Positions 14,982 to 49,809 of a stretch of DNA of 64,000 bases are shown piece by piece (within the stretch, counting starts at the first letter, position 1; each line of letters starts with the position of its first letter). The stretch comes from Euglena gracilis (taxonomy: Eukaryota), in contig CP154954.1 in assembly GCA_039621445.1 (NCBI GenBank), positions 992,001 to 1,056,000 on the forward strand, given 5' to 3'. The notes under the pieces are model-generated. The model was not told where the DNA came from. It saw nothing but the letters and a program-made list of their open reading frames with translations, and did not search any database. The translations under genes were made by a program, and so were the position numbers.

Positions 14982-15573
14982 TCAGCTTTCGTTTCTCAGC
15001 GTCAGTATTGGCCTAGAAAAGTGCCTTCGCCATTGGTGTTCTTTCCAATCTCTACGCATTTCACCGCTACACTGGAAATTCCCTTCACCCCTACCATACT
15101 CAAGTCTAGCAGTTTTTAATGCCCTTCCAAAGTTAAGCTTTGACTTTTAACATTAAACACACTTGACCGCCTACAAACTCTTTACGCCCAATAATTCCGG
15201 ATAACGCTCGCATCTCCCGTATTACCGCGGCTGCTGGCACGGAATTAGCCGATGCTTATTCCTCAAATACCGTCATTTCTTCTTCTTTGAGAAAAGAAGT
15301 TTACAACCCAAAGGCCTTCTTCCTTCACGCGGTATTGCTCCGTCAGGCTTGCGCCCATTGCGGAAAATTCCTCACTGCTGCCTTCCGTAGAAGTCTGTTC
15401 CGTTCTCAATCCCAGTGTGGCTGATCATCCTCTCAAATCAGCTACTGATCGTCGCCTTGGTAAGCCTTTACCTCACCAACAAGCTAATCAGATGCAAGCT
15501 CATGCCTAGGCGAAATTCTCTTTAACTAGCTACTCACATAGATCTAGTAAAGTATGAGGCATTAGCAAACGTT
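14236..15573 (-). rRNA. rrs: 16S rRNA, repeat 3: 5'-truncated by ~150 nt, with a 9-nt deletion and several SNPs
   Basis: Homology ends at attagcaaacgtt (15573); gggttgc[gctcgttgc]gggac deletion at ~14660. Confidence 0.9.
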
Positions 15574-16112
15574 CCCTGTCCTTCTCTCTCTTCCTGTCCT
15601 TCTCTTCTTCTCTCTATCTCTCTCCCCCTGTCCTTCTCTCTCTGTCCTGTCCTTCTCTCTATTCTCTCCTCTCTCTCTCCCCCTGTACTTTCTCTTCCTG
15701 TACTTCTCTCTTAATCTCTCTATATACCAATGTACTTATCTCTATTCCTGTCCTTATATATCTCTTCTATATATTCTCCTCCCTGTACTTCTCTCTATTC
15801 CTGTCCTTCTCTCTCTTCTCTATCCTCTCTCTCCCAATGTCCTTATATCTCTTCCTGTACTTATATATATTATATACTATATATACCAATGTACTTATAT
15901 ATATTAATGTACTTATATATCTTATATATCCTATATTACCAATGTACTTTATATATTAATGTACTTATATATATTATATATATACTATATATACCAATGT
16001 ACTTATATATTTAATGTACTTATATATATTATATATACTATATATACCAATGTACTTATATATATTAATGTACTTATATATATTATATATACTATATATA
16101 CCAATGTACTTA
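15574..16112 (+). repeat. 54-nt VNTR, corrupted copy (A->C gradient at the left end)
   Basis: The unit ccaatgtacttatatatattaatgtacttatatatattatatatactatatata is clean at the right end and reads cccctgtccttctctctct... at the left end. Confidence 0.85.
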
Positions 16113-16145
16113 AATGGTCTTTACTGAATATTTTCTACATCAGTC

Positions 16146-16250
16146 CCCTTGGTGACCAAGCAAGGGGCACATTTACTATAATGTGTACACTAAAAGCGCG
16201 CTTTGTAGGATTCGAACCTACTACATCAGGTTTTGGAGACCTACGCCTTA
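16146..16250 (-). pseudogene. trnW: isolated copy of the rRNA leader with pseudo-trnW (16195-16250)
   Basis: cttggtgaccaagcaaggggcac...ctacgcctta matches 3928-4030. Confidence 0.85.
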
Positions 16251-18107
16251 TGGTTTTTTATTGATTATTAACCCTGATTTATTAATTATTAAGTACTTTA
16301 TGGTTAAATTCCGTAACGTTTATTGTAATCCAAAGAACCACACAAACTGCTTTCTATTTAGCTATGTGTGTGGCTAATGCATACGTAATTTCTTAAAGGG
16401 TAAAAAGGAAGTGAACCCATTGCCGAGGAAATGCTTAGATTCGATTCTATTGCTCAATCAGGTTGTATCCATCCATAATCCATCCATACGTCAAGTCCGG
16501 ATGGAAGAACTGGTTGGTTATTTCTGCCAGATAAAAGATGTTTACTTTCCAAGATAATATTTTAAGGTTTAAGATTTCAAGATAAACAAAGTTTATAAGT
16601 GTTAGTTAATTATTACAGTTCATTATCAGAGATAGGTTTTTCAGAAAAATGATATAATGAAAAAATAGAAGATGTTTAGAGCTAACAATATTTTTACATG
16701 AGTTACATATTTAATGTAATATAAAATTGTATGTTTCGTAGGATTTTACTTAGAAACAAACAGAAATGTCTAGATATATATATAGAGTTTTTCTCAATTT
16801 CTATTATTCTTGTTCTTATTCAATGTTAGATTATTATTCGTGATGATAGATTATCTTACTTATTATTATTATTCCTGTAATCACTTATGCTATTATTCTT
16901 CTGAAACGTCATATTCAAGTTACTTAATATATAATTATGGTAGACTAAATGATTGTACTCTAAAAGTTCGATCTCATTTTTTATGAATAAATACAATACT
17001 AAAAATTAATTGTAAGGTATTAAATATTAATAATATTTTGTAACTACTTTTGATTTATTCATCTGTACTTCTTGTAATACTTCTTTATATCAAAAATGTG
17101 GGTAAATTATTTGTATTAGTTTAATCGGCAAAAAGCTTTGTTAAACAAAATTTTGCTTGTTGCTGGAAATTAAAATTTTACGAAAATGACAATGATTACA
17201 CTATTTGTGATAATAGTTTATTACTAAATATGTATATTTATACTAATATTATTTCAAAAATAGGTAATAATAATAGATTATTTAAGATTTAAAATAATCT
17301 ATATAAATACTTTATAGTAGTTATTATGTATTAAACGCGTTTTTATTATTTTTTACTGTCACTAAAATTTTTCAAGAAGCTATTAAAATTTTAAAAGTGT
17401 TATAATTTATATATTTTTAAAAATAAATTTTTGTATATATATAATTCTGTTGTACACTTTTTTGTAATAAAGTTTGTAAATTCCAGAAAATTATATGTTT
17501 TAGAATATTTTATTTTTATTCAATTATTATTCTATGATATTTTTTATACACCCAGATAGTTTTATCTTGTTAACTCATCAATACTCATCAATATAGTAAA
17601 CAATAAAAATTTTGAAAACAATGTGAATCATGTTCGTTTCAAAAGTAATCCAAGTCATTAAAATTATTACTTTGCAAGAGAATTTATGATTTGAAATTAG
17701 ATTCATTTTAAAAATCAAAATTTTGAATTAATTTAATTTCCTTTTATCCATAAATAGTAATTTAAAATTCAAAATTAGCTTTTCTAATGTTTTTTGCTTA
17801 AACCTATAAGTTTGTCTTTAAGAAGTAAATCTAGTTCACATTTTACTTTTTCTTTTTAGTTTCATAATTTTTCAAAGTCTATATTATTATTTTAACTAAT
17901 AATAAAATTTTTACATAATTATGTAAAAAACAAAAAATCAATATCAACTATTGTTTTGTAAGATTTCAATCTACGACATCACGTTTTGGGTACTTTCCAT
18001 TATTCAAATTTTGTTATAAATTTAACATTTTTCAAAATAAAAGACGTTGATTTTAATCTAGATATATATTGCAACTTTTTTATTAACGTTTTTTATTTCG
18101 AGAGTTT

Positions 18108-25000: not shown

Positions 25001-25820
25001 GGGTACGGCTAATAGTATTCAGTTACAATACCACGGTTATTCTATAGAGTAGAGTGGTCTCTTTGGTACAAGATGCGTATTTTTAATGCCGAAAAACAAA
25101 TGTGTTTATTAGGAAAGTAGTTTAGAATAAAAATTACAGTTGTGTAGTTATACGTTTTGCTACTTTAATAAATATGTGTTAAAAACCGTGAATGCTAGAA
25201 ACCAATCTTTTATTTATTACTTTTTTATTTTTAAGAAATTTGACTTGGTTAATCTAATCATGTTTGATTTTTCTTTGCAAAATAAGCTTTGCATATTGGG
25301 TTAGTTATTGTACCTTGTAGTTATGTCGGTAAATTAGCGTATTTTTAATTTGTAGTTTTTATGTGTAATTGAAAAGATCTTAGTAAAAATCAATAATTTT
25401 TTTTGGTTGAACGACAATGTGAAAAAGCAAATGTTTTGAAATAATAGTTCAAAAATGACATGGAAAAGTTAAATACTTGATCATGCAATTATGCTAACGT
25501 TACATTAGCTCAAAACATTTTTTATGTTGAATTCGGCAATTCAATTTTGTTTTTTAAAAGTTTATGTGAATTTTGATAAAAGAAGTTTTTAACTTTTCAA
25601 TGTTATATTATATAATTTTATAGATTAATTTGATATTTAGTATAAATTTTACTTATATTTTTTGTTTTTTAGTTTATAATAAGCGTTATGAACGTTAACT
25701 CATTTTTAAATTTTGAACGACCGTTTTACTATTAATGCTTACTGTTTTCCTTATGTTAATAGATATAATATTCAATCTGTAAAAAATATTTTAATAGCTG
25801 ATTATTTGAGTACAGAAATA

Positions 25821-26666
25821 ATGTTTTTAAAAGATATACATCAATTTTTTCTTGGTTTTGTTATTACAAATACTATTATTGTTATTATAGGTCAAATAAA
25901 CCTTCAGTTTAAAAATTCTTATAATATTGTAAGTGGTTTAAAAGTGCAGCAACTTGATTCTATTAAGTATTATTGTAAAGTATTAACGCACGATAGTAGT
26001 TGTTTGTTTTTTAGAAATTGTTTAGCTGTAATTGATAGTATTATTGTTAATATTGACGAATATCTTTCATTATCTCCTTTTAAAAGACGAGAAAAGTTTT
26101 TACAAGATGTGGAATCTTTGAATAACCCTTCTGTGCCTGCTCGTTTATTTATAAATCCGAAAAAAGATTTTATTTTGATACATCGTAAGGGAGTATCTTT
26201 GAAGATTCGAAGTACTTTTCAAATGTATTCAATTTATAAGTTTAATGTTTCAGTTAGTAAGAATGCAGCTATATTTAATACTTTAAGACCGAGTGATTTC
26301 ATTTCTTTTTTAGAATATTATAGTGATATGAACATTAATGAAATACTTATTAATGTTCTGAATAACTATGGATTAAATGATATTTCCTTGTTTTTGGTAA
26401 AAAAGATTTTTTATTTATTTGATTCAGATAAGATTTTTTTTAATGAGTTTATAGGTGTTGATAGCGTTCCTTTAGAATATTTTTTACTTTTTTTATCAAA
26501 AAAGTACATTATTAGAGCAAGGAAAGAATCGCCTTTAAAAATATATACTGACTTTGAAGATTTTTACATACACGGTTCATTTAAAAATATTTTAAAAATG
26601 CAACAGCAAAAAATTAAACAAAACCTTGGTTTTAAAACAAAATCTAATTTTTTTACAGGAATATAG
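25821..26666 (+). CDS. psbD intron 8 ORF, 281 aa from ATG (317 aa from TTG at 25713); orf281a-like
   Basis: Long open frame in ~80% AT intron DNA, identical in all three copies. Confidence 0.7.
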   Translation: MFLKDIHQFFLGFVITNTIIVIIGQINLQFKNSYNIVSGLKVQQLDSIKYYCKVLTHDSSCLFFRNCLAVIDSIIVNIDEYLSLSPFKRREKFLQDVESLNNPSVPARLFINPKKDFILIHRKGVSLKIRSTFQMYSIYKFNVSVSKNAAIFNTLRPSDFISFLEYYSDMNINEILINVLNNYGLNDISLFLVKKIFYLFDSDKIFFNEFIGVDSVPLEYFLLFLSKKYIIRARKESPLKIYTDFEDFYIHGSFKNILKMQQQKIKQNLGFKTKSNFFTGI

Positions 26667-26668
26667 TT

Positions 26669-27338
26669 GTGGCAAATTTGAAAAAATTTTTGTGTAAATT
26701 TCGCACTAAGAAAATACGTAGAAGAGATAATTTTATGTTAATAAAAGTAAATTTTATGGAGCATTATCTTTTAAATAAACAATTTGAGTTAGCCTCTGCT
26801 ATTAAATCAAGAAACAAAATTTTAATCCATAAATTAGTATCTGATGTCTTAGTTTCTTATAATTCATTATGTTATGCTGTATACAAAACGTTGAAGAATT
26901 CGGATGATAAATCTTCATCGAATATTCAAAAAAAAAAAAAAAAAAGAAAAATTTTCAAAATTTAGTTGATTCTTTAAAATGTTTTGTATTGAATTATGAT
27001 TTTTATAAAATCAGATGTTTAAATTTATATTATCTTCGCAATTTTATCGATTGCAAAGAACAATTCTTACACTTTCATTTTTTGGATATAGCTTTGCAAA
27101 ATCTATATAGTTTTATATTTTTTCCTTTTCTTGAATCAAATTTGGATAAATTTACGTATGGACCGAGAGTTTTTCGGTCTTCTATTGATGCGGTAAAAGT
27201 ATTGTTTTTGTTGGGTAAACAAAAAAAGTATAGTAATTATAATAAATATCTCTTTTGTTTTGCTTTTAACTATACGATTGTAAAATGCTTTGATGCAGTT
27301 TTTAATAGTTGGGTGTTATCTAATGTTTCATTTATTGA
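26669..27338 (+). CDS. 5' part of the intron 8 maturase/RT-like ORF, cut by the fold-back
   Basis: Same sequence as 60332-61001. Confidence 0.7.
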
Positions 27339-27347
27339 GATTCAAAA

Positions 27348-27385
<38 letters not shown>

Positions 27386-27781
27386 AAAAAACGAAAAATT
27401 TCAAAAATTAGTGAGTCTTTAATTATATGTCTTAGATTTGTAATTGATAGTATTGTTTTATATCATTATATCAGATGTTTAAAGGTTTATAGTTATGTCT
27501 TACGCAAGTTTTATCGAGTGCAAGAATCACATATATGTTGACACTTTCATTATTTTGTGATATAGATTTGCAATCAATCTGTATGTATTCGCGTTTTTTA
27601 TATTTTTTCCTTTTTTTCTTGCAATCCAAATCTGTCTATGTTTAAATTTACGTAGGACCGAGAGTTTTTCGGTCTTCTATTGATGCGGTACAACGTCATT
27701 GTTTTTGTTGGGTGGAATCCTATCTTTCCCTAATCCTCCGTTGTGTCGTGTTTTTCTCCGCTGCCAGCATGGAGAGAGATT
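27339..27781. other. fold-back junction 1: noisy re-read of ~26925-27213 followed by a degraded SMRTbell adapter (27717-27780)
   Basis: atcctatctttccctaatcctccgttgtgtcgtgtt...gagagagat resembles the adapter ATCTCTCTCTTTTCCTCCTCCTCCGTTGTTGTTGTTGAGAGAGAT. Confidence 0.88.
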
Positions 27782-28331
27782 ACACAACAAAAACAATACT
27801 TTTACCGCATCAATAGAAGACCGAAAAACTCTCGGTCCATACGTAAATTTATCCAAATTTGATTCAAGAAAAGGAAAAAATATAAAACTATATAGATTTT
27901 GCAAAGCTATATCCAAAAAATGAAAGTGTAAGAATTGTTCTTTGCAATCGATAAAATTGCGAAGATAATATAAATTTAAACATCTGATTTTATAAAAATC
28001 ATAATTCAATACAAAACATTTTAAAGAATCAACTAAATTTTGAAAATTTTTCTTTTTTTTTTTTTTTTTTGAATATTCGATGAAGATTTATCATCCGAAT
28101 TCTTCAACGTTTTGTATACAGCATAACATAATGAATTATAAGAAACTAAGACATCAGATACTAATTTATGGATTAAAATTTTGTTTCTTGATTTAATAGC
28201 AGAGGCTAACTCAAATTGTTTATTTAAAAGATAATGCTCCATAAAATTTACTTTTATTAACATAAAATTATCTCTTCTACGTATTTTCTTAGTGCGAAAT
28301 TTACACAAAAATTTTTTCAAATTTGCCACAA

Positions 28332-29177
28332 CTATATTCCTGTAAAAAAATTAGATTTTGTTTTAAAACCAAGGTTTTGTTTAATTTTTTGCTGTTGCAT
28401 TTTTAAAATATTTTTAAATGAACCGTGTATGTAAAAATCTTCAAAGTCAGTATATATTTTTAAAGGCGATTCTTTCCTTGCTCTAATAATGTACTTTTTT
28501 GATAAAAAAAGTAAAAAATATTCTAAAGGAACGCTATCAACACCTATAAACTCATTAAAAAAAATCTTATCTGAATCAAATAAATAAAAAATCTTTTTTA
28601 CCAAAAACAAGGAAATATCATTTAATCCATAGTTATTCAGAACATTAATAAGTATTTCATTAATGTTCATATCACTATAATATTCTAAAAAAGAAATGAA
28701 ATCACTCGGTCTTAAAGTATTAAATATAGCTGCATTCTTACTAACTGAAACATTAAACTTATAAATTGAATACATTTGAAAAGTACTTCGAATCTTCAAA
28801 GATACTCCCTTACGATGTATCAAAATAAAATCTTTTTTCGGATTTATAAATAAACGAGCAGGCACAGAAGGGTTATTCAAAGATTCCACATCTTGTAAAA
28901 ACTTTTCTCGTCTTTTAAAAGGAGATAATGAAAGATATTCGTCAATATTAACAATAATACTATCAATTACAGCTAAACAATTTCTAAAAAACAAACAACT
29001 ACTATCGTGCGTTAATACTTTACAATAATACTTAATAGAATCAAGTTGCTGCACTTTTAAACCACTTACAATATTATAAGAATTTTTAAACTGAAGGTTT
29101 ATTTGACCTATAATAACAATAATAGTATTTGTAATAACAAAACCAAGAAAAAATTGATGTATATCTTTTAAAAACAT
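28332..29177 (-). CDS. intron 8 281-aa ORF (inverted copy)
   Basis: Identical translation to 25821-26666. Confidence 0.65.
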   Translation of the reverse strand: MFLKDIHQFFLGFVITNTIIVIIGQINLQFKNSYNIVSGLKVQQLDSIKYYCKVLTHDSSCLFFRNCLAVIDSIIVNIDEYLSLSPFKRREKFLQDVESLNNPSVPARLFINPKKDFILIHRKGVSLKIRSTFQMYSIYKFNVSVSKNAAIFNTLRPSDFISFLEYYSDMNINEILINVLNNYGLNDISLFLVKKIFYLFDSDKIFFNEFIGVDSVPLEYFLLFLSKKYIIRARKESPLKIYTDFEDFYIHGSFKNILKMQQQKIKQNLGFKTKSNFFTGI

Positions 29178-29997
29178 TATTTCTGTACTCAAATAATCAG
29201 CTATTAAAATATTTTTTACAGATTGAATATTATATCTATTAACATAAGGAAAACAGTAAGCATTAATAGTAAAACGGTCGTTCAAAATTTAAAAATGAGT
29301 TAACGTTCATAACGCTTATTATAAACTAAAAAACAAAAAATATAAGTAAAATTTATACTAAATATCAAATTAATCTATAAAATTATATAATATAACATTG
29401 AAAAGTTAAAAACTTCTTTTATCAAAATTCACATAAACTTTTAAAAAACAAAATTGAATTGCCGAATTCAACATAAAAAATGTTTTGAGCTAATGTAACG
29501 TTAGCATAATTGCATGATCAAGTATTTAACTTTTCCATGTCATTTTTGAACTATTATTTCAAAACATTTGCTTTTTCACATTGTCGTTCAACCAAAAAAA
29601 ATTATTGATTTTTACTAAGATCTTTTCAATTACACATAAAAACTACAAATTAAAAATACGCTAATTTACCGACATAACTACAAGGTACAATAACTAACCC
29701 AATATGCAAAGCTTATTTTGCAAAGAAAAATCAAACATGATTAGATTAACCAAGTCAAATTTCTTAAAAATAAAAAAGTAATAAATAAAAGATTGGTTTC
29801 TAGCATTCACGGTTTTTAACACATATTTATTAAAGTAGCAAAACGTATAACTACACAACTGTAATTTTTATTCTAAACTACTTTCCTAATAAACACATTT
29901 GTTTTTCGGCATTAAAAATACGCATCTTGTACCAAAGAGACCACTCTACTCTATAGAATAACCGTGGTATTGTAACTGAATACTATTAGCCGTACCC

Positions 29998-38842: not shown

Positions 38843-38876
38843 GACTGATGTAGAAAATATTCAGTAAAGACCATTT

Positions 38877-40080
38877 AAGTACATTGGTATATATAGTATA
38901 TATATTATATAAGTACATTAATATATATAAGTACATTGGTATATATAGTATATATAATATATATAAGTACATTAATATATATAAGTACATTGGTATATAT
39001 AGTATATATAATATATATAAGTACATTAATATATATAAGTACATTGGTATATATAGTATATATAATATATATAAGTACATTAATATATATAAGTACATTG
39101 GTATATATAGTATATATAATATATATAAGTACATTAATATATATAAGTACATTGGTATATATAGTATATAATATATATAAGTACATTAATATATATAAGT
39201 ACATTGGTATATATAGTATATATATATATATATATATATAAGTACCTTGGTATATAGTATATATAGTACATTTATCTAAGTACATTGGTATATATAGTAT
39301 ATATATATATAAGTACATTATATATATAAGTACATTGGTATATATAGTATATATAATATATATAAGTACATTAATATATATAAGTACATTGGTATATATA
39401 GTATATCTATATATATAAGTACATTAATATATATAAGTACATTGGTATATATAGTATATATAATATATATAAGTACATTAATATATATAAGTACATTGGT
39501 ATATAGTATATATTATATATATACTTAATATATATGTACATTGGTATATATAGTATATATATATATAAGTACATTATATATATAAGTACATTGGTATATA
39601 TAGTATATATATATAAGTACATTAATATATATACATTGGTATATATAGTATATATATATATATAAGTACATTAATATATATAAGTACATTGGTATATATA
39701 GTATATATAATATATATAAGTACATTAATATATATAAGTACATTGGTATATATAGTATATATATATATAAGTACATTAATATATAAGTACATTGGTATAT
39801 ATAGTATATATAATATATATAAGTACATTAATATATAAGTACATTGGTATATAGTATATATAATATATATAAGTACATTAATATATAAGTACATTGGTAT
39901 ATATTATATATAATATATATAAGTACATTAATATATATAGTACATTGGTATATATAGTATATATCTATATATTTTTTTTATTATTGGTATATTAGTATTT
40001 AATTATATAAGTACATTATTATTTTTTATATTTATCATTATATATAGTACATTTTATATTATTGGTATATAGTTTCTATA
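38877..40080 (-). repeat. 54-nt VNTR (inverted, error-rich copy)
   Basis: aagtacattggtatatatag and aagtacattaatatatat units, with indels accumulating to the right. Confidence 0.92.
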
Positions 40081-40565
40081 TTCTACCCTTGATTCTTGGG
40101 TTTTTTGCAAAATTACTTCGGGAATTTTTTGCATTTAACCTACAATGCAATTAAAATATAGTTATTGATATATATTCAATGATCTATTTTTTTTTTTTTT
40201 TTTTTTTAGTTTGATTAAGAATTATTATTTTTTTATTTTTTATGACACATTCATAGAAATAGGTAAAGAAAATTAAAAGCAAAAAAAACGATTTCTTATA
40301 TTCATTTTATGATTTTTACGATGTATTTCTTTAGAAATTTTGTTTTTTTACACTCTTTTATGAACTATATAATTAAAGTAAAATCTATTTTAATTAATCG
40401 ATATTCGTTGGCTACCTGCAATGCAATTTTATTGTATTTTTTTCAAACAAATTATTATAAAATTTATTTGTTAGTTAATACTAGTTTATCTTTTTACAAT
40501 TTAATTTTTTTCCTTAGGAATTTTCTAAGGATAGTAAAAAAAAAAACGATCCAAAAGTTTTTCTT

Positions 40566-41453
40566 TTGGCTTTATTGATAATTTCGAAAAATTATATCCA
40601 ATATGCGCTTTACTGTAATTTTTTGTTTCAAGTTGGTAACAGAACATTAAAAGTAATCAAGTCCGTTGAAATTTCTAAAAATGAAATTTTGAAAAACGAC
40701 CCTTCGTTGAAGGCTTTGGAGTTTTGGAAAAAAATTAAAATATTTTATAGTAAGAATTTTATTTCCAAAATTGCCGTAATTATGGTAATTAGTTTTTCTG
40801 GTTATTGCGCATTTAATTTTGCATTTAAATTTTTTGGTGTACTTAAAGAATCTTCAAAAATCTTGGCTTCTTTTTTCTCTTTTAATCATGATCAAAAAAA
40901 TGATAATTCTGAAGACAATCGTTCCGAAGATGATTTAAAGTCAAGTCAAGACCCAGTAAATATTCCTTCTATCGAACAAAGTTTCAAAGTTGAAGATTTT
41001 TCAATTTTCAATCCTGATTTTTGGTCAACTGATTTTGATAAAATTTTATTGGAAGAGGGTTATGACCTAGAGGGTTCATTAAGCACTTTATGGTTAACTC
41101 CAAGAACATTTATTGTGATGAAAAGGATCGTGCAAACTGGTTTCTATTTAAGTATGTGTGTAGCTAATGCATATGCAATTGCTGAAACCGTAAAAAGAGG
41201 TCAGCCGGTTAGCAATGATATGTTACAATTTAATCCGACTTTGCAAACAGGATTTGTCTACCCATACGGGCAGTCAATGTCAGCACCCGGTCAAATACCT
41301 GGGGGGAATTTGGGCCGAACGTTTGTTCCTGAAGAAAAAATGTTTACTTCACAAGATCTAGCAGTTTCATCCAACTGTAATGTGGGGGATGGATTTGTTG
41401 AGGTTATAGAAATCCCATTTAATTATTATAAGGATGCATTACCCCCCGAGTAA
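40566..41453 (+). CDS. hypothetical protein, 295 aa (orf295-like), one hydrophobic segment
   Basis: Long ORF with elevated GC and a TTG start; no recognisable family. Confidence 0.65.
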   Translation: MALLIISKNYIQYALYCNFLFQVGNRTLKVIKSVEISKNEILKNDPSLKALEFWKKIKIFYSKNFISKIAVIMVISFSGYCAFNFAFKFFGVLKESSKILASFFSFNHDQKNDNSEDNRSEDDLKSSQDPVNIPSIEQSFKVEDFSIFNPDFWSTDFDKILLEEGYDLEGSLSTLWLTPRTFIVMKRIVQTGFYLSMCVANAYAIAETVKRGQPVSNDMLQFNPTLQTGFVYPYGQSMSAPGQIPGGNLGRTFVPEEKMFTSQDLAVSSNCNVGDGFVEVIEIPFNYYKDALPPE

Positions 41454-41787
41454 TATTCCTTTCTATTTTCGATTTCAAAGAAAAATATCAATATATTAAA
41501 TTTTTTATGTATTAAATAACTTGATACATAATTATTAGTAGTCACTACGTTTTTTATACGTAATATTATTTCTTTAACACATGGTTTTTTATATAAAAAT
41601 AGGTCAATTTTTTTTTATTATTTTTTTTAGAAAAAAAAAAATGCTTTGTAGACTATGTGGTAACTACATTTCAGTATCGTAATTAGTACGACAGCTCGAA
41701 TTTGGGTTTTGCAATTTTTTTTTTTCATTTTTTTTTTTTTTTTTTGCAAATAGGGGGGGTTGTTCTAAAATTCGGTGATTTTATTTA

Positions 41788-41892
41788 TGGGAGATTTTTA
41801 TGCATTCAATAGTGCCGGGTAAAAATTGGCATGTTTTTATTAAGACAGGATTCGGTAGTTTTGAGGATTTTAACTTATTATTCATCAAAAAA
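41788..41892 (+). pseudogene. degenerate copy of the orf350 N-terminus
   Basis: atgggagatttt..atgcattcaatagtgccgggtaaaaattggcatgtttttattaagacaggattcggtagttttgaggattttaacttattattcatcaaaaa encodes ...VPGKNWHVFIKTGFGSFEDFNLLFIKK, with a frameshift after MGDF. Confidence 0.8.
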
Positions 41893-42359
41893 AGCAATTT
41901 CTTACATTTTATTTATGATTTTTAGGATGTATTTATTCAGAAAATTTATTTTTTTCTTTAAGCAAAACTGTGTTATTTTTTTTGCTTATATATTTTTCCT
42001 TGATTCCAGAGTTCTTGCAATTTACTTCGGGATTTTTTAAAATTTAACCTACAACGAAATTGTAGTTAAGATATATTTTAATGATCTATTTTTTTATATT
42101 TTTTAAAAAGTTGTTATTTGTTATTATTTTTTTTTTCAATTAAGATTTTTATATTTTTCACACTCATTTTTTTTTAAAAAAATTATTATTATAGAAAAAA
42201 AATCCTTAATTGGTAACGTTGTGATTATGTTACTTCATCGTAGTGGGTCGCAAGTTCGAATTGAAGGTTTGCAAATTTTTTTTTTCATTTTTTTTTTTTT
42301 TTTGCATAATGGAGATATGGAAGTTTGAGGTTTTCAAAAAATGATTTATTTTTTTATTT

Positions 42360-43415
42360 ATGGGAGATTTTATTATGTATTCAATGGTTCCAGGAAAAAA
42401 CTGGCATGTTTTTATTAAAACAGGGTTCGGTAGTTTTGAGGATTTTAACTTATTATTCATCAAAAAGTGGAAAGAGTTAATTAATTATAACTCTATTTCT
42501 TTTATTATTTATGGTTTTGATTTGTCTGAAAATAATTTAAACAACTTTTGTGAAGTGACTATAGAGGTCTATATAGAATTTAATAAAAATTACCGAAGGC
42601 ATGGTCTTAAAAAATTATTTTCTTTTGAAAAAAATTCTGTTATTGTAGAAAAGGGATCGAGTAGTAAAACTTCACTTGATAATTTTTTTTCTAAAACAGG
42701 GAATAAAAACATTGAAGTTTGTTGGTCAGGTGTTCCAAGGTTTGAAAATGGTTTAAAAAATTCTTTAAGTTTTGATTTTGTTATTAAAAATAATTTATTA
42801 AGTCGTGCGCGAAAAGATCATTGTTTTCCTTCGTTTTTTTCTAAATTGATTTCCAATTCCTCAGAAAATTATTTAAAAGTGAAAGAAAAAATAACAGAAG
42901 AGAAAAAGGAATTAGAAATAAATGATTCTAATAATTTTTTACACGATCATTTTAATGTTTTGAAAGCTAATGATCAATTTTTAAACATCATTGAAAAATA
43001 TATAATAGAGTACAAAAATTTGTTTTTTTTAACGAGTAAAAACGATGCAATAAAACTTCGTTCTATGTTGTTGAAGTATATATCTGAAGTCGCAGTATTA
43101 GAAAATAGTATCTCAAATTCTAATATTTCTAATATTTTTTTATTTAAGCAAGCTTCTAAGTTTTATAAACATAATTCTTTAAAAAACGATAATTATAAAA
43201 ACTGGGATTTTAACTGGATTTTTGTGGAAATGCTTCTTATTTTTTTTCTAGAAAAAGCAAAAAATAAAAAAATTGATAAATTTGAATTATATACTTTAGT
43301 GAACAAAGAAATTTATGGTGAAGAACAGTTAGATATAATGGTTAAAAACTTTAGAAAAAGAGCTTGTGAAAATGTCGATTTACGGCAGATTCGGTCTTCA
43401 TTGCCTTGTTTTTGA
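42360..43415 (+). CDS. hypothetical protein, 351 aa (orf350-like); N-terminus resembles a degenerate HUH Rep endonuclease domain
   Basis: Long ATG-initiated ORF; motif spacing described in the findings. The product call is inference. Confidence 0.72.
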   Translation: MGDFIMYSMVPGKNWHVFIKTGFGSFEDFNLLFIKKWKELINYNSISFIIYGFDLSENNLNNFCEVTIEVYIEFNKNYRRHGLKKLFSFEKNSVIVEKGSSSKTSLDNFFSKTGNKNIEVCWSGVPRFENGLKNSLSFDFVIKNNLLSRARKDHCFPSFFSKLISNSSENYLKVKEKITEEKKELEINDSNNFLHDHFNVLKANDQFLNIIEKYIIEYKNLFFLTSKNDAIKLRSMLLKYISEVAVLENSISNSNISNIFLFKQASKFYKHNSLKNDNYKNWDFNWIFVEMLLIFFLEKAKNKKIDKFELYTLVNKEIYGEEQLDIMVKNFRKRACENVDLRQIRSSLPCF

Positions 43416-43554
43416 TTTTTATATAGGGAGAAAAGTATAAAAAAAAAAGAAGAAAAAAATTTAAATAATACAAAAATCAATTTAACAGTAAAAAAAATTT
43501 ATAAAAAATATTGTTCTTATAAAGCACAATATGATGAAAAAAACCTGGACCAAA

Positions 43555-43959
43555 AATTTAGTTGAAAGAAATGGAATCATGCTTCCGATTGTGGAGATCT
43601 TCCTTCTTCCCCTCTTTGGGGTTTGGTAGCAGGGACAAGGGGATAGTGAAACGATAGGAGAAGGAGATATTGTTCGTAAAGCGTGGCAAACAAAAGCGAC
43701 TGAATAAAATAAGTATGGCATTGGAAAATGTGATTAGTCTATCATCTTATTATTCTACAAATTGGACATGATAAAAAAGCATCTTTTAAATTAAGTTCAT
43801 AGACACTATATTTCACATTTTCCAATCGATTTTTTGACACGCTGGTAATTAAAATCGTCTACGGGATTTTGAACGCTTAGAAAATATTTCTACTTCTACT
43901 ACGTTTACAAATATGCCCATTTTCAAGGATAAAAAAAAAAGCTGGGGGCAACGAAAGTG
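43555..43959. other. fold-back junction 2 (noisy, centre ~43743-43798)
   Basis: attggaaaatgtgattagtctat (43720) pairs imperfectly with atagacactatatttcacattttccaat (43799); the flanks are clean inverted arms. Confidence 0.82.
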
Positions 43960-44098
43960 TTTGGTCCAGGTTTTTTTCATCATATTGTGCTTTATAAGAA
44001 CAATATTTTTTATAAATTTTTTTTACTGTTAAATTGATTTTTGTATTATTTAAATTTTTTTCTTCTTTTTTTGTCATACTTTTCTCCCTATATAAAAA

Positions 44099-46075: not shown

Positions 46076-46423
46076 TTACTCCTCCGTTTTTTGCATTTCT
46101 ATAATAGTATTATCTGTGTATAAGTTACGCGGTAACTCAACTCCTTTTTCCTCAAGAAATTTTTCAATAAACTCATAAAATTGCTTTTCTCTTTGCTTAG
46201 AATCATATTCATATGATTCGCCATACTGTTTTCTGCGACGTTTTTCAGCAATTTCGTTTCTCAGAACAACATCTTCCCAACTAAAAAGTTGATCATTAGG
46301 TTTTTTTTCATTAAAAATAGGATAATCATTTCTTTCTAATTCCTTTTTATCTTCCATTAATTTTTGATAATCCCTTTCGGGAACCATTGAGCACATAAAA
46401 TAAAACATAATAAAATCTCCCAT
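46076..46423 (-). CDS. hypothetical protein, 115 aa, partial paralogue of orf350
   Basis: MGDFIM...SMVP start and an EDKKELERND segment match orf350 MGDFIMYSMVP and EEKKELEIND; charged C-terminus. Confidence 0.55.
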   Translation of the reverse strand: MGDFIMFYFMCSMVPERDYQKLMEDKKELERNDYPIFNEKKPNDQLFSWEDVVLRNEIAEKRRRKQYGESYEYDSKQREKQFYEFIEKFLEEKGVELPRNLYTDNTIIEMQKTEE

Positions 46424-48212: not shown

Positions 48213-48696
48213 AAGAAAAACTTTTGGATCGTTTTTTTTTTTTTACTATCCTTAGAAAATTCCTAAGGAAAAAAATTAAATTGTAAAAAGATAAACTAGT
48301 ATTAACTAACAAATAAATTTTATAATAATTTGTTTGAAAAAAATACAATAAAATTGCATTGCAGGTAGCCAACGAATATCGATTAATTAAAATAGATTTT
48401 ACTTTAATTATATAGTTCATAAAAGAGTGTAAAAAAACAAAATTTCTAAAGAAATACATCGTAAAAATCATAAAATGAATATAAGAAATCGTTTTTTTTG
48501 CTTTTAATTTTCTTTACCTATTTCTATGAATGTGTCATAAAAAATAAAAAAATAATAATTCTTAATCAAACTAAAAAAAATACAAAAAAAAAATAGATCA
48601 TTGAATATATATCAATAACTATATTTTAATTGCATTGTAGGTTAAATGCAAAAAATTCCCGAAGTAATTTTGCAAAAAACCCAAGAATCAAGGGTT

Positions 48697-49776
48697 ATGT
48701 ACTTATATATACCAATGTACTTATATATACTATATATACCAATGTACTTATATATATTAATGTACTTATATATATTATATATACTATATATACCAATGTA
48801 CTTATATATATTAATGTACTTATATATATTATATATACTATATATACCAATGTACTTATATATATTAATGTACTTATATATATTATATATACTATATATA
48901 CCAATGTACTTATATATATTAATGTACTTATATATATTATATATACTATATATACCAATGTACTTATATATATTAATGTACTTATATATATTATATATAC
49001 TATATATACCAATGTACTTATATATATTAATGTACTTATATATATTATATATACTATATATACCAATGTACTTATATATATTAATGTACTTATATATATT
49101 ATATATACTATATATACCAATGTACTTATATATATTAATGTACTTATATATATTATATATACTATATATACCAATGTACTTATATATATTAATGTACTTA
49201 TATATATTATATATACTATATATACCAATGTACTTATATATATTAATGTACTTATATATATTATATATACTATATATACCAATGTACTTATATATATTAA
49301 TGTACTTATATATATTATATATACTATATATACCAATGTACTTATATATATTAATGTACTTATATATATTATATATACTATATATACCAATGTACTTATA
49401 TATATTAATGTACTTATATATATTATATATACTATATATACCAATGTACTTATATATATTAATGTACTTATATATATTATATATACTATATATACCAATG
49501 TACTTATATATATTAATGTACTTATATATATTATATACTATATATATACCAATGTACTTATATATATTAATGTACTTATATATATTATATATACTATATA
49601 TACCAATGTACTTATATATATTAATGTACTTATATATATTATATATACTATATATACCAATGTACTTATATATATTAATGTACTTATATATATTATATAT
49701 ACTATATATACCAATGTACTTATATATATTAATGTACTTATATATATTATATATACTATATATACCAATGTACTTA
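48697..49776 (+). repeat. 54-nt VNTR, 19 full units plus partial units; the region associated with the replication origin in E. gracilis cpDNA
   Basis: Units start at 48739 and the final partial unit starts at 49765 (1026 = 19 x 54). The origin association is recalled from literature, not shown by the sequence. Confidence 0.97.
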
Positions 49777-49809
49777 AATGGTCTTTACTGAATATTTTCT
49801 ACATCAGTC

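Follow-up and report, generated by a model that had tools for sequence, protein, structure and literature searches.

A probable inactivated Rep/HUH domain encoded by ORF351 of Euglena gracilis plastid DNA

What kind of protein is encoded next to the variable-number tandem repeats (VNTR) of the Euglena gracilis plastid genome, and does it descend from a virus or plasmid? The question was raised by an open reading frame (ORF) of 351 codons, hereafter ORF351, in a 64,000-nt stretch of E. gracilis DNA (GCA_039621445.1, contig CP154954.1, positions 992,001-1,056,000 of the forward strand). This whole stretch is referred to as the window, and all positions given below are window positions. A first-pass annotation, made from the sequence alone, had read the N-terminal part of ORF351 as a catalytically dead Rep domain of the circovirus type, that is, of the CRESS-DNA viruses, whose circular, single-stranded genomes encode a Rep. 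This reading was supported by three independent lines of evidence: by the predicted fold, by a profile-profile alignment in the same register and by language-model features. Taken jointly, the evidence makes it probable that the N-terminal domain is a diverged homologue of the Rep/HUH (histidine-hydrophobic-histidine) proteins that was inactivated, was captured long ago and now acts as a DNA-binding module.

E. gracilis plastid DNA has in ORF351 a real protein-coding gene. Its translation agreed to the letter with the segments quoted earlier (PGKNWHVFIKT, FIIYGFDLSE, VTIEVYIEFNKNYRRHGLKKLF, IVEKGSSSKTSLDNFFSKTGN and IEVCWSGVPR), and all 351 codons were still open, as had been stated. From stop to stop the frame measured 356 codons in DNA of 24% GC, compared with a maximum of 125 codons in 200 shuffles of positions 40001-44000, a length far beyond chance in the local DNA. 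An independent fragment (P0004), which reads through the A-run, also supported the 351-codon frame. A copy of the first 31 codons lying upstream of the gene (Table 1) differed from ORF351 by seven synonymous and two non-synonymous changes, with 17% of the possible changes being synonymous (binomial P ~1e-4 under a crude uniform model). Combined with the family conservation described below, this 7:2 excess points to constraint on the protein. Promoter and terminator scans gave signals at shuffle level only, and Rfam returned nothing above threshold across 39.9-48.8 kb. In a listing of 24 sequencing runs, 18 (from 12 studies) contained at least half of the words, four of these being RNA by guess only; the two true RNA runs in that listing had shares of 0.06-0.09, which is not evidence of ORF351 transcription.

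The frame had been described as an orphan, which proved to be wrong. A HMMER search of 1.84 billion representatives with ORF351 returned 17 proteins at E ≤ 1e-3, of which three (P0002-P0004) were fragments 94-99% identical to the query and 14 were more remote homologues (28-42% identity, E from 1.5e-22 to 3.5e-5, 93-339 aa). The ten homologues whose names were looked up were all unnamed or "hypothetical protein" entries from metagenome or run assemblies, and homologue contigs reached 71,871 and 81,125 bases. The fraction of FYMINK residues was 0.40-0.53 in all family members, compared with 0.27 in CRESS-virus Reps; judged from sequence, this AT-codon-rich composition fits organelle genomes. 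The family that includes ORF351 is small, has no name and is encoded in genomes very rich in AT (organelle-like). The family alignment contained invariant residues (W37, F48, Y51) and near-invariant ones (Y71, W122, F140), as well as the conserved blocks G-R/K-N-W, F-I-x-Y, Y-V/I-E-L-x-K-x-x-R, F-W-x-G-x-P-R-x-E and N-Y-x-F-I. When 5.8 billion proteins were searched by word index, ORF351 retrieved none of 193-615 aa and the family profile only three proteins, all known already, while single-protein scans of metagenome, viral and genome contigs for homologue loci were empty. The domain had no tblastn match among 72,556 plasmids and 50,697 phage records, and no paper connecting euglenid plastid ORFs with Rep/HUH proteins was found in open-access text.

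These data bear on the possibility that ORF351 is a decaying, functionless Rep pseudogene, its frame open by chance and the sequence neither expressed nor selected. The loss of the catalytic motifs (see below) speaks for such decay, as do the abundance of partial duplicates and deletion derivatives in the region (three 31-codon fragments, and ORF115 at 46076-46423) and the absence of full-length ORF351 from the 5.8-billion-protein collection in the word-indexed search; decay is nonetheless improbable, given a 351-codon open frame in DNA of such low GC, 14 homologues that keep the same non-catalytic columns and the C-terminal region, and the synonymous excess in the 31-codon copy. The motif loss is moreover family-wide and hence old, and the frame has outlasted it.

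ORF115 itself, on the minus strand, shared its start (MGDFIM...SMVP) with ORF351 and continued into a stretch like ORF351 residues ~175-195 (KELERNDYPIF in ORF115, KELEINDSNNF in ORF351). It looks like an internally deleted ORF351 derivative without the Rep-like domain.

Concerning the fold of the N-terminal domain, AlphaFold2 run on residues 1-167 with a 15-row alignment returned a model with a predicted local distance difference test score (pLDDT) of 87.2 and a predicted template modelling score (pTM) of 0.82, all five models lying at 85-87, while the prediction from the single sequence (pLDDT 36) was of no use. The predicted elements (β1 12-20, α1 31-41, β2 46-58, β3 63-78, α2 80-87, β4 93-98, α3 102-113, β5 119-124) followed a β-α-β-β-α-β-α-β topology, and the HUH-endonuclease fold with its five-stranded antiparallel sheet was present in the model. 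Searched against the PDB with Foldseek, the model had eight matches at E ≤ 1e-3, and all eight were CRESS Rep nuclease domains, from Vientovirus, duck circovirus, porcine circovirus 2 (PCV2), faba bean necrotic yellows virus and wheat dwarf virus. VIA-align, run independently of Foldseek against 48,161 representative PDB chains, gave the nanovirus M-Rep 6h8o as best match (Z 9.9, root-mean-square deviation (rmsd) 2.2 Å, 94/95 residues), and 7kii and 8h56 both scored Z 9.2. Its first 14 rows (Z 9.9-6.6) were without exception CRESS Rep, pMV158 RepB, papillomavirus E1, SV40 large T or SIRV1 ORF119. Row 15 (Z 5.9) was a mitoribosomal protein, the first match with an unrelated fold. In BFVD there were 287 matches at E ≤ 1e-3; of the 50 rows listed, 16 had a name, and each of these was a Rep protein. 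The best ESM Atlas matches of residues 1-165 were all Cressdnaviricota Rep-type clusters, with ~200/256 features in common and a score of 0.94 that is, by the tool's own calibration, a lead and not proof. The fold check proposed in the first-pass annotation, an AlphaFold model searched against known structures, here with Foldseek and VIA-align, placed the domain with the circovirus/nanovirus Rep endonucleases. Residues 1 to ~130 of ORF351 are probably homologous to the rolling-circle Rep (HUH) endonucleases, their closest relatives being the Reps of CRESS-DNA viruses of the nano-, circo- and geminivirus type.

At the sequence level, the family was compared with a set of Reps drawn from 120 IMG/VR loci with a Rep motif II pattern, which yielded 87 Rep ORFs and, after removal of redundancy, 71 sequences. 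All five Reps that were checked matched PF02407 (70-79 bits), serving as positive control, and three of these also matched the superfamily 3 (SF3) helicase (PF00910). Aligned with hhalign to the 71 Rep N-terminal domains, the family profile reached a score of 32.1 (P 6.9e-5, probability 63%), residues 10-88 pairing with Rep residues 2-64, while the reversed target scored 13.9 and none of 60 column shuffles attained the real score (maximum 22.4). The alignment (KNWHVFIK/RNFCFTLN, FIIYGFD/YLIFGKE, VTIEVYIEF/PHLQGYVCF, YRRHGLKKLF/KKLTALKKLL) reproduced the register proposed in the first-pass annotation. The circovirus strings on which that register had been built were correct, the PCV2 Rep chain reading KRWVFTLNN, YFIVGEE, PHLQGF, HIEKAKGTDQQNKEYCSKEGN and GAPR, and the spacing from EK to SKxGN was indeed identical in ORF351 and PCV2 (14 residues each). 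On these sequence comparisons, homology to CRESS Reps appears well supported but lies below database-search thresholds. As the suggested Pfam/HMMER check gave no significant match and the gathering threshold of Viral_Rep (PF02407) was not reached, the domain would stand for a branch of the Rep/HUH superfamily that is new and inactivated, and not for a member of Viral_Rep.

The Rep motifs, as set out in the cited account, are uuTu (motif I), HUH (motif II) and YxxK (motif III) (PMC6668415). Remnants of all three could be located in ORF351 (Table 1), each without its catalytic residue. At the motif I column, Thr was found in 3 of the 14 family members. His57 and Gln59 of PCV2 corresponded to Thr67 and Glu69 (hhalign register combined with an alignment to PCV2), and His occurred in 0/14 members at column 67 and in 1/15 at column 69. 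The catalytic Tyr96 of PCV2 fell opposite Phe109, and Tyr was absent from both column 108 and column 109 in the family (0/14 each). The replacement of the metal-binding His by Thr and of the catalytic Tyr by Phe, noted earlier for ORF351, was therefore confirmed, and it holds throughout the family; since the loss is common to all members, the inactivation is likely to be old.

No helicase was detected downstream of the domain. The Walker A expression [AG]xxxxGK[ST] was found neither in ORF351, where its absence had already been reported, nor in 18 family-related proteins (P0002-P0019) or the unrelated neighbour P0020, and residues 166-351, when aligned by hhalign with full-length Reps, showed no helicase similarity (probability 0.2%). 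Matches of the C-terminal half to CRESS helicase clusters in ESM scored 0.84, below the tool's threshold, and constitute a lead only. This half was conserved with P0007, P0016/19 and P0018, and its helical character was predicted only by a poor single-sequence AlphaFold2 model. With all three catalytic motifs lost, and with them the residues for holding the metal and for making the phosphotyrosine link, and no SF3 helicase, the domain cannot nick and join DNA in the canonical way.

Several results weigh against descent from a Rep. ORF351 had no Pfam match at E ≤ 10, PHROG and PDB phmmer searches likewise gave nothing usable, the family profile found 0 PDB chains at E ≤ 10 with hmmsearch and no signal against one single Rep sequence, and PF02407 was touched by only one of the 15 family members (E 0.093). 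The hhalign probability was just the 63% given above, for a coverage of residues 10-88 (10-105 with full-length rows), and the fold model was built on 15 sequences. The fold is itself a variant of the ferredoxin-like β-α-β arrangement, and such variants recur. Motif III was placed by spacing and structural ranges, without a significant sequence alignment; a gap-free extension of the hhalign alignment sets the Tyr opposite Asn108 and not Phe109, and three of the 14 members (P0011, P0012, P0014), all without any HUH residues, have a Tyr one helical turn earlier (column 105). The designation as a plastid family rests on FYMINK composition and contig sizes. As for an inserted replicon, Pfam, nonanucleotide and Rfam scans found no other viral, plasmid or mobile-element gene, no capsid gene and no hairpin-nonanucleotide origin. 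The TARTATTAC nonanucleotide occurred at chance level (7 versus 4.7 expected), and the occurrence between ORF350 and ORF351 (41560-41568) had no flanking stem.

Part of this evidence would also suit convergence, in which an unrelated ferredoxin-like β-α-β fold was matched to Reps by AlphaFold2 and the aligners. The lack of a significant Pfam or PDB sequence match, the hhalign probability, the absence of all signature motifs and the appearance of ribosomal S6, ACT and NikR folds at Z 5-6.6 all point that way. Convergence is nevertheless very unlikely in view of the gap that separates the Rep-type matches (rows 1-14) from the first unrelated fold, a structural identity of 15-20% to CRESS Reps versus 4-6% to RepB, and a profile alignment that is in the structurally correct register and beats 60/60 shuffles. 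The flanking residues agree as well (NW before β1, GY-x-E/Q-F/L after the HUH site, and the EK..SKxGN spacing of PCV2), and the ESM features point to the same Rep families. The evidence argues strongly for homology rather than convergence.

That ORF351 is still a nuclease or transferase with a non-canonical site, formed by Tyr71/Glu73 on β3 or by Tyr51, is most improbable: Y51 is invariant, Y71 and E73 occur in 14/15 and 13/15 members and would lie, judging from strand alternation, on the same β3 face as the lost HUH residues, and a subclade (3/14 members) has a Tyr on helix α3, but the equivalents of Y71/E73 are aromatic/polar in active CRESS Reps too (HLQGY/F-x-x-F), which suggests a structural role, and no conserved His or Asp cluster is present to hold a metal.

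An inactivated Rep/HUH homologue could have arisen in ORF351 as follows. A Rep-encoding plasmid or CRESS-like virus would have entered the plastid genome before the present hosts diverged, and the captured Rep would have lost the motif I Thr, the HUH metal ligands and the nucleophilic Tyr while being kept under selection. By analogy with the origin-binding domains (OBDs) of papillomavirus E1 and polyomavirus large T, the dead domain may bind DNA without cutting it, and its target could possibly be the adjacent VNTR/origin repeats. We infer, as the first-pass annotation did, a relic of an integrated virus or plasmid.

The VNTR ends 2.3 kb upstream of ORF351, in line with the earlier statement that the two lie a few kilobases apart. 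The VNTR is the tandem-repeat region to which the E. gracilis plastid origin was mapped; a published account places this region ~6 kb upstream of the extra 16S gene and states that a replication model for the origin has not been put forward (PMC3308993). In a more far-reaching scenario, which we consider unlikely, the VNTR origin and ORF351 would be the remains of one Rep-encoding plasmid or CRESS-like replicon, inserted into the plastid chromosome of an ancestral euglenid, whose origin became the chromosome origin, and ORF351 would be a plastid-encoded protein that binds the origin without nicking it and marks the repeats for a nuclear-encoded helicase and polymerase.

In that scenario, ORF351 would be the first replication initiator in a plastid that is both organelle-encoded and descended from a virus or plasmid. 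Irrespective of that scenario, the finding would count as evidence for the past entry of a Rep-encoding mobile replicon into a secondary plastid. The protein is a concrete, testable candidate for recognition of the Euglena chloroplast origin, and through it the Rep/HUH superfamily would gain a branch that is inactivated, lacks a helicase and is encoded in an organelle.

Table 1. Positions of ORF351, its domains and motif remnants, and neighbouring features in the window.
Feature	Position	Strand	Basis or remark
ORF351, whole gene	42360-43415	+	351 codons plus stop; frame with translation, 14 distant homologues
Rep/HUH-fold domain (predicted), residues 10-130	42387-42749	+	AlphaFold2 model and fold searches
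Motif I remnant KNWHVFIKT, residues 13-21	42396-42422	+	hhalign register; Thr position is Phe18
Motif II (HUH) remnant VTIEVYIEF, residues 66-74	42555-42581	+	paired by hhalign with PHLQGYVCF
Motif III (YxxK) remnant LDNFFSKTGN, residues 106-115, helix α3	42675-42704	+	spacing equals PCV2 E84..S98; VIA-align ranges, model 10-128 vs chain 12-112
Conserved extension after the fold, residues 131-167 (PRFE, NYxF, LxxKA), short helices	42750-42860	+	family alignment and AlphaFold2 model
C-terminal helical region (predicted), residues 190-351	42927-43412	+	NYKNWxFNW, DLKQIR conserved in some homologues
31-codon copy of ORF351 5' end	41800-41892	+	followed by unrelated sequence
Further 31-codon copies of ORF351 5' end	45715-45623 and 46984-46892	-	same 31-codon fragment
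Second ORF351 copy, 305 codons	44238-45155	-	inverted arm; tail out of frame at 44230-44102
Unique centre between inverted arms, 384 bp, 35% GC	43565-43948	.	no similarity elsewhere in the window
VNTR, 54-bp units	38850-40040	.	mirror copy ~48560-49780; plastid origin mapped to this tandem-repeat region (PMC3308993)
ORF350, "Uncharacterized 40.9 kDa protein in 16S rRNA 3' region"	40309-41453	+	UniRef, 100% identity over 84% of length

Apart from the features in Table 1, the window contained three tandem rRNA operons (minus strand, 1-15.7 kb), chlI, trnL-CAA and a group II intron, with 19-29% GC elsewhere. The identity of ORF350 to an E. gracilis UniRef entry establishes that the window is E. 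gracilis plastid DNA. ORF350 had no Pfam match and no homologue except itself; here it was split into ORFs of 89 and 295 aa with a different C-terminus by differences in the length of an A-run and a G-run (compared with P0020). Sequences like the T-arm and acceptor half of a tRNA (GGGTCGCAAGTTCGAAT..., translated GFEPTTSGFGD) were present at 42225-42275, just upstream of ORF351, and at 15959-16264, beside the VNTR, and neither ARAGORN nor Rfam called a tRNA at either stretch.

The window had a layout of nested palindromes. In the outer palindrome, the segment at 15.8-27.2 kb appears in reverse complement at 27.8-39.2 kb and, in direct orientation, again at 49.4-61.0 kb; in the inner one, 40.0-43.56 kb mirrors 43.95-48.7 kb around the unique 384-bp centre, which contained neither a long ORF nor a Rfam match above threshold and resembled nothing else in the window. 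The copies (15718-61001) were 99.1-99.7% identical; their differences lay in homopolymer runs and in single residues, as in chlI (KKPFEPG vs KKAFEPG). The right arm had an extra 1269-bp unit. ORF115 lies within this unit, of which the right arm has two copies and the left arm one. Three ORFs (317, 98 and 140 aa) occupied the centre of the outer palindrome (25713-27411, plus strand; mirror 27677-29285, minus strand), and part of its 440-bp centre was 79% similar to the adjacent 26928-27216.

The 16S gene beside the VNTR was without its 5' end: at 15570-15800, ~130 nt short of that end, it ceased to resemble the other two copies and passed into a stretch like the VNTR, with G at many of the T positions (AAGGACAGGAAGAGAG...). 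This segment looks like a low-quality or chimeric join. Published E. gracilis plastomes are described as lacking inverted repeats in the cited passages (PMC3308993), and "three and a half" rDNA copies are reported for them (PMC9728796). The published map without inverted repeats, the homopolymer differences, the join at 15570-15800 and the extra 1269-bp unit together make the large-scale layout suspect, and the palindromic arrangement suggests either a chimeric long-read assembly or replication/recombination intermediates. The other copy of the domain that the first-pass annotation had reported on the minus strand is present in the assembly, being 100% identical to ORF351 over 304 residues up to a frameshift at an A7/A8 run, but it may be an artefact of a palindromic, error-prone region. 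The large-scale arrangement, and with it this second copy, is probably an assembly artefact.

Among known systems, the Rep domains of CRESS-DNA viruses (PF02407; 6H8O, 6WDZ/5XOR of PCV2, 7KII of duck circovirus, 7VG8/1L2M of tomato yellow leaf curl virus) have the same β1-α1-β2-β3-α2-β4-α3-β5 fold as predicted for ORF351, from which they deviate by an rmsd of 2.2-3.7 Å (Z 9.9-7.7, 15-20% identity). They share with it the register of motifs I, II and III and, for PCV2, the EK..SKxGN spacing. Unlike these Reps, ORF351 has no Pfam-level match, no uuTu Thr, no HUH residues, no YxxK Tyr and no SF3 helicase; it is plastid-encoded, with an extreme AT-driven composition and a different helical C-terminal half. 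RepB of pMV158 (Rep_OBD, PF01719) has the same superfamily fold (Z 8.1) but only 4-6% identity to ORF351, and is an active nuclease, whereas ORF351 has neither a PF01719 match nor an active HUH/Tyr site. Plasmids of red algae and of phytoplasmas carry CRESS-derived Reps, and Rep genes are described in the cited account as moving between viruses and algal or bacterial plasmids (PMC6668415).

The OBDs of papillomavirus E1 and polyomavirus large T were described by Kazlauskas et al. (2019) as inactivated HUH domains without any of the three motifs (PMC6668415), and thus share with ORF351 both the HUH fold and the loss of every catalytic motif. Their structures (1ksy, 1r9w, 4gdf) matched the ORF351 model at Z ~7, below the CRESS Reps. 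E1 and large T belong to double-stranded DNA viruses and are fused to an SF3 helicase, whereas ORF351 has no helicase and its origin binding is proposed by analogy only. With these differences, the OBDs of E1 and large T would offer the best functional analogy for the ORF351 domain.

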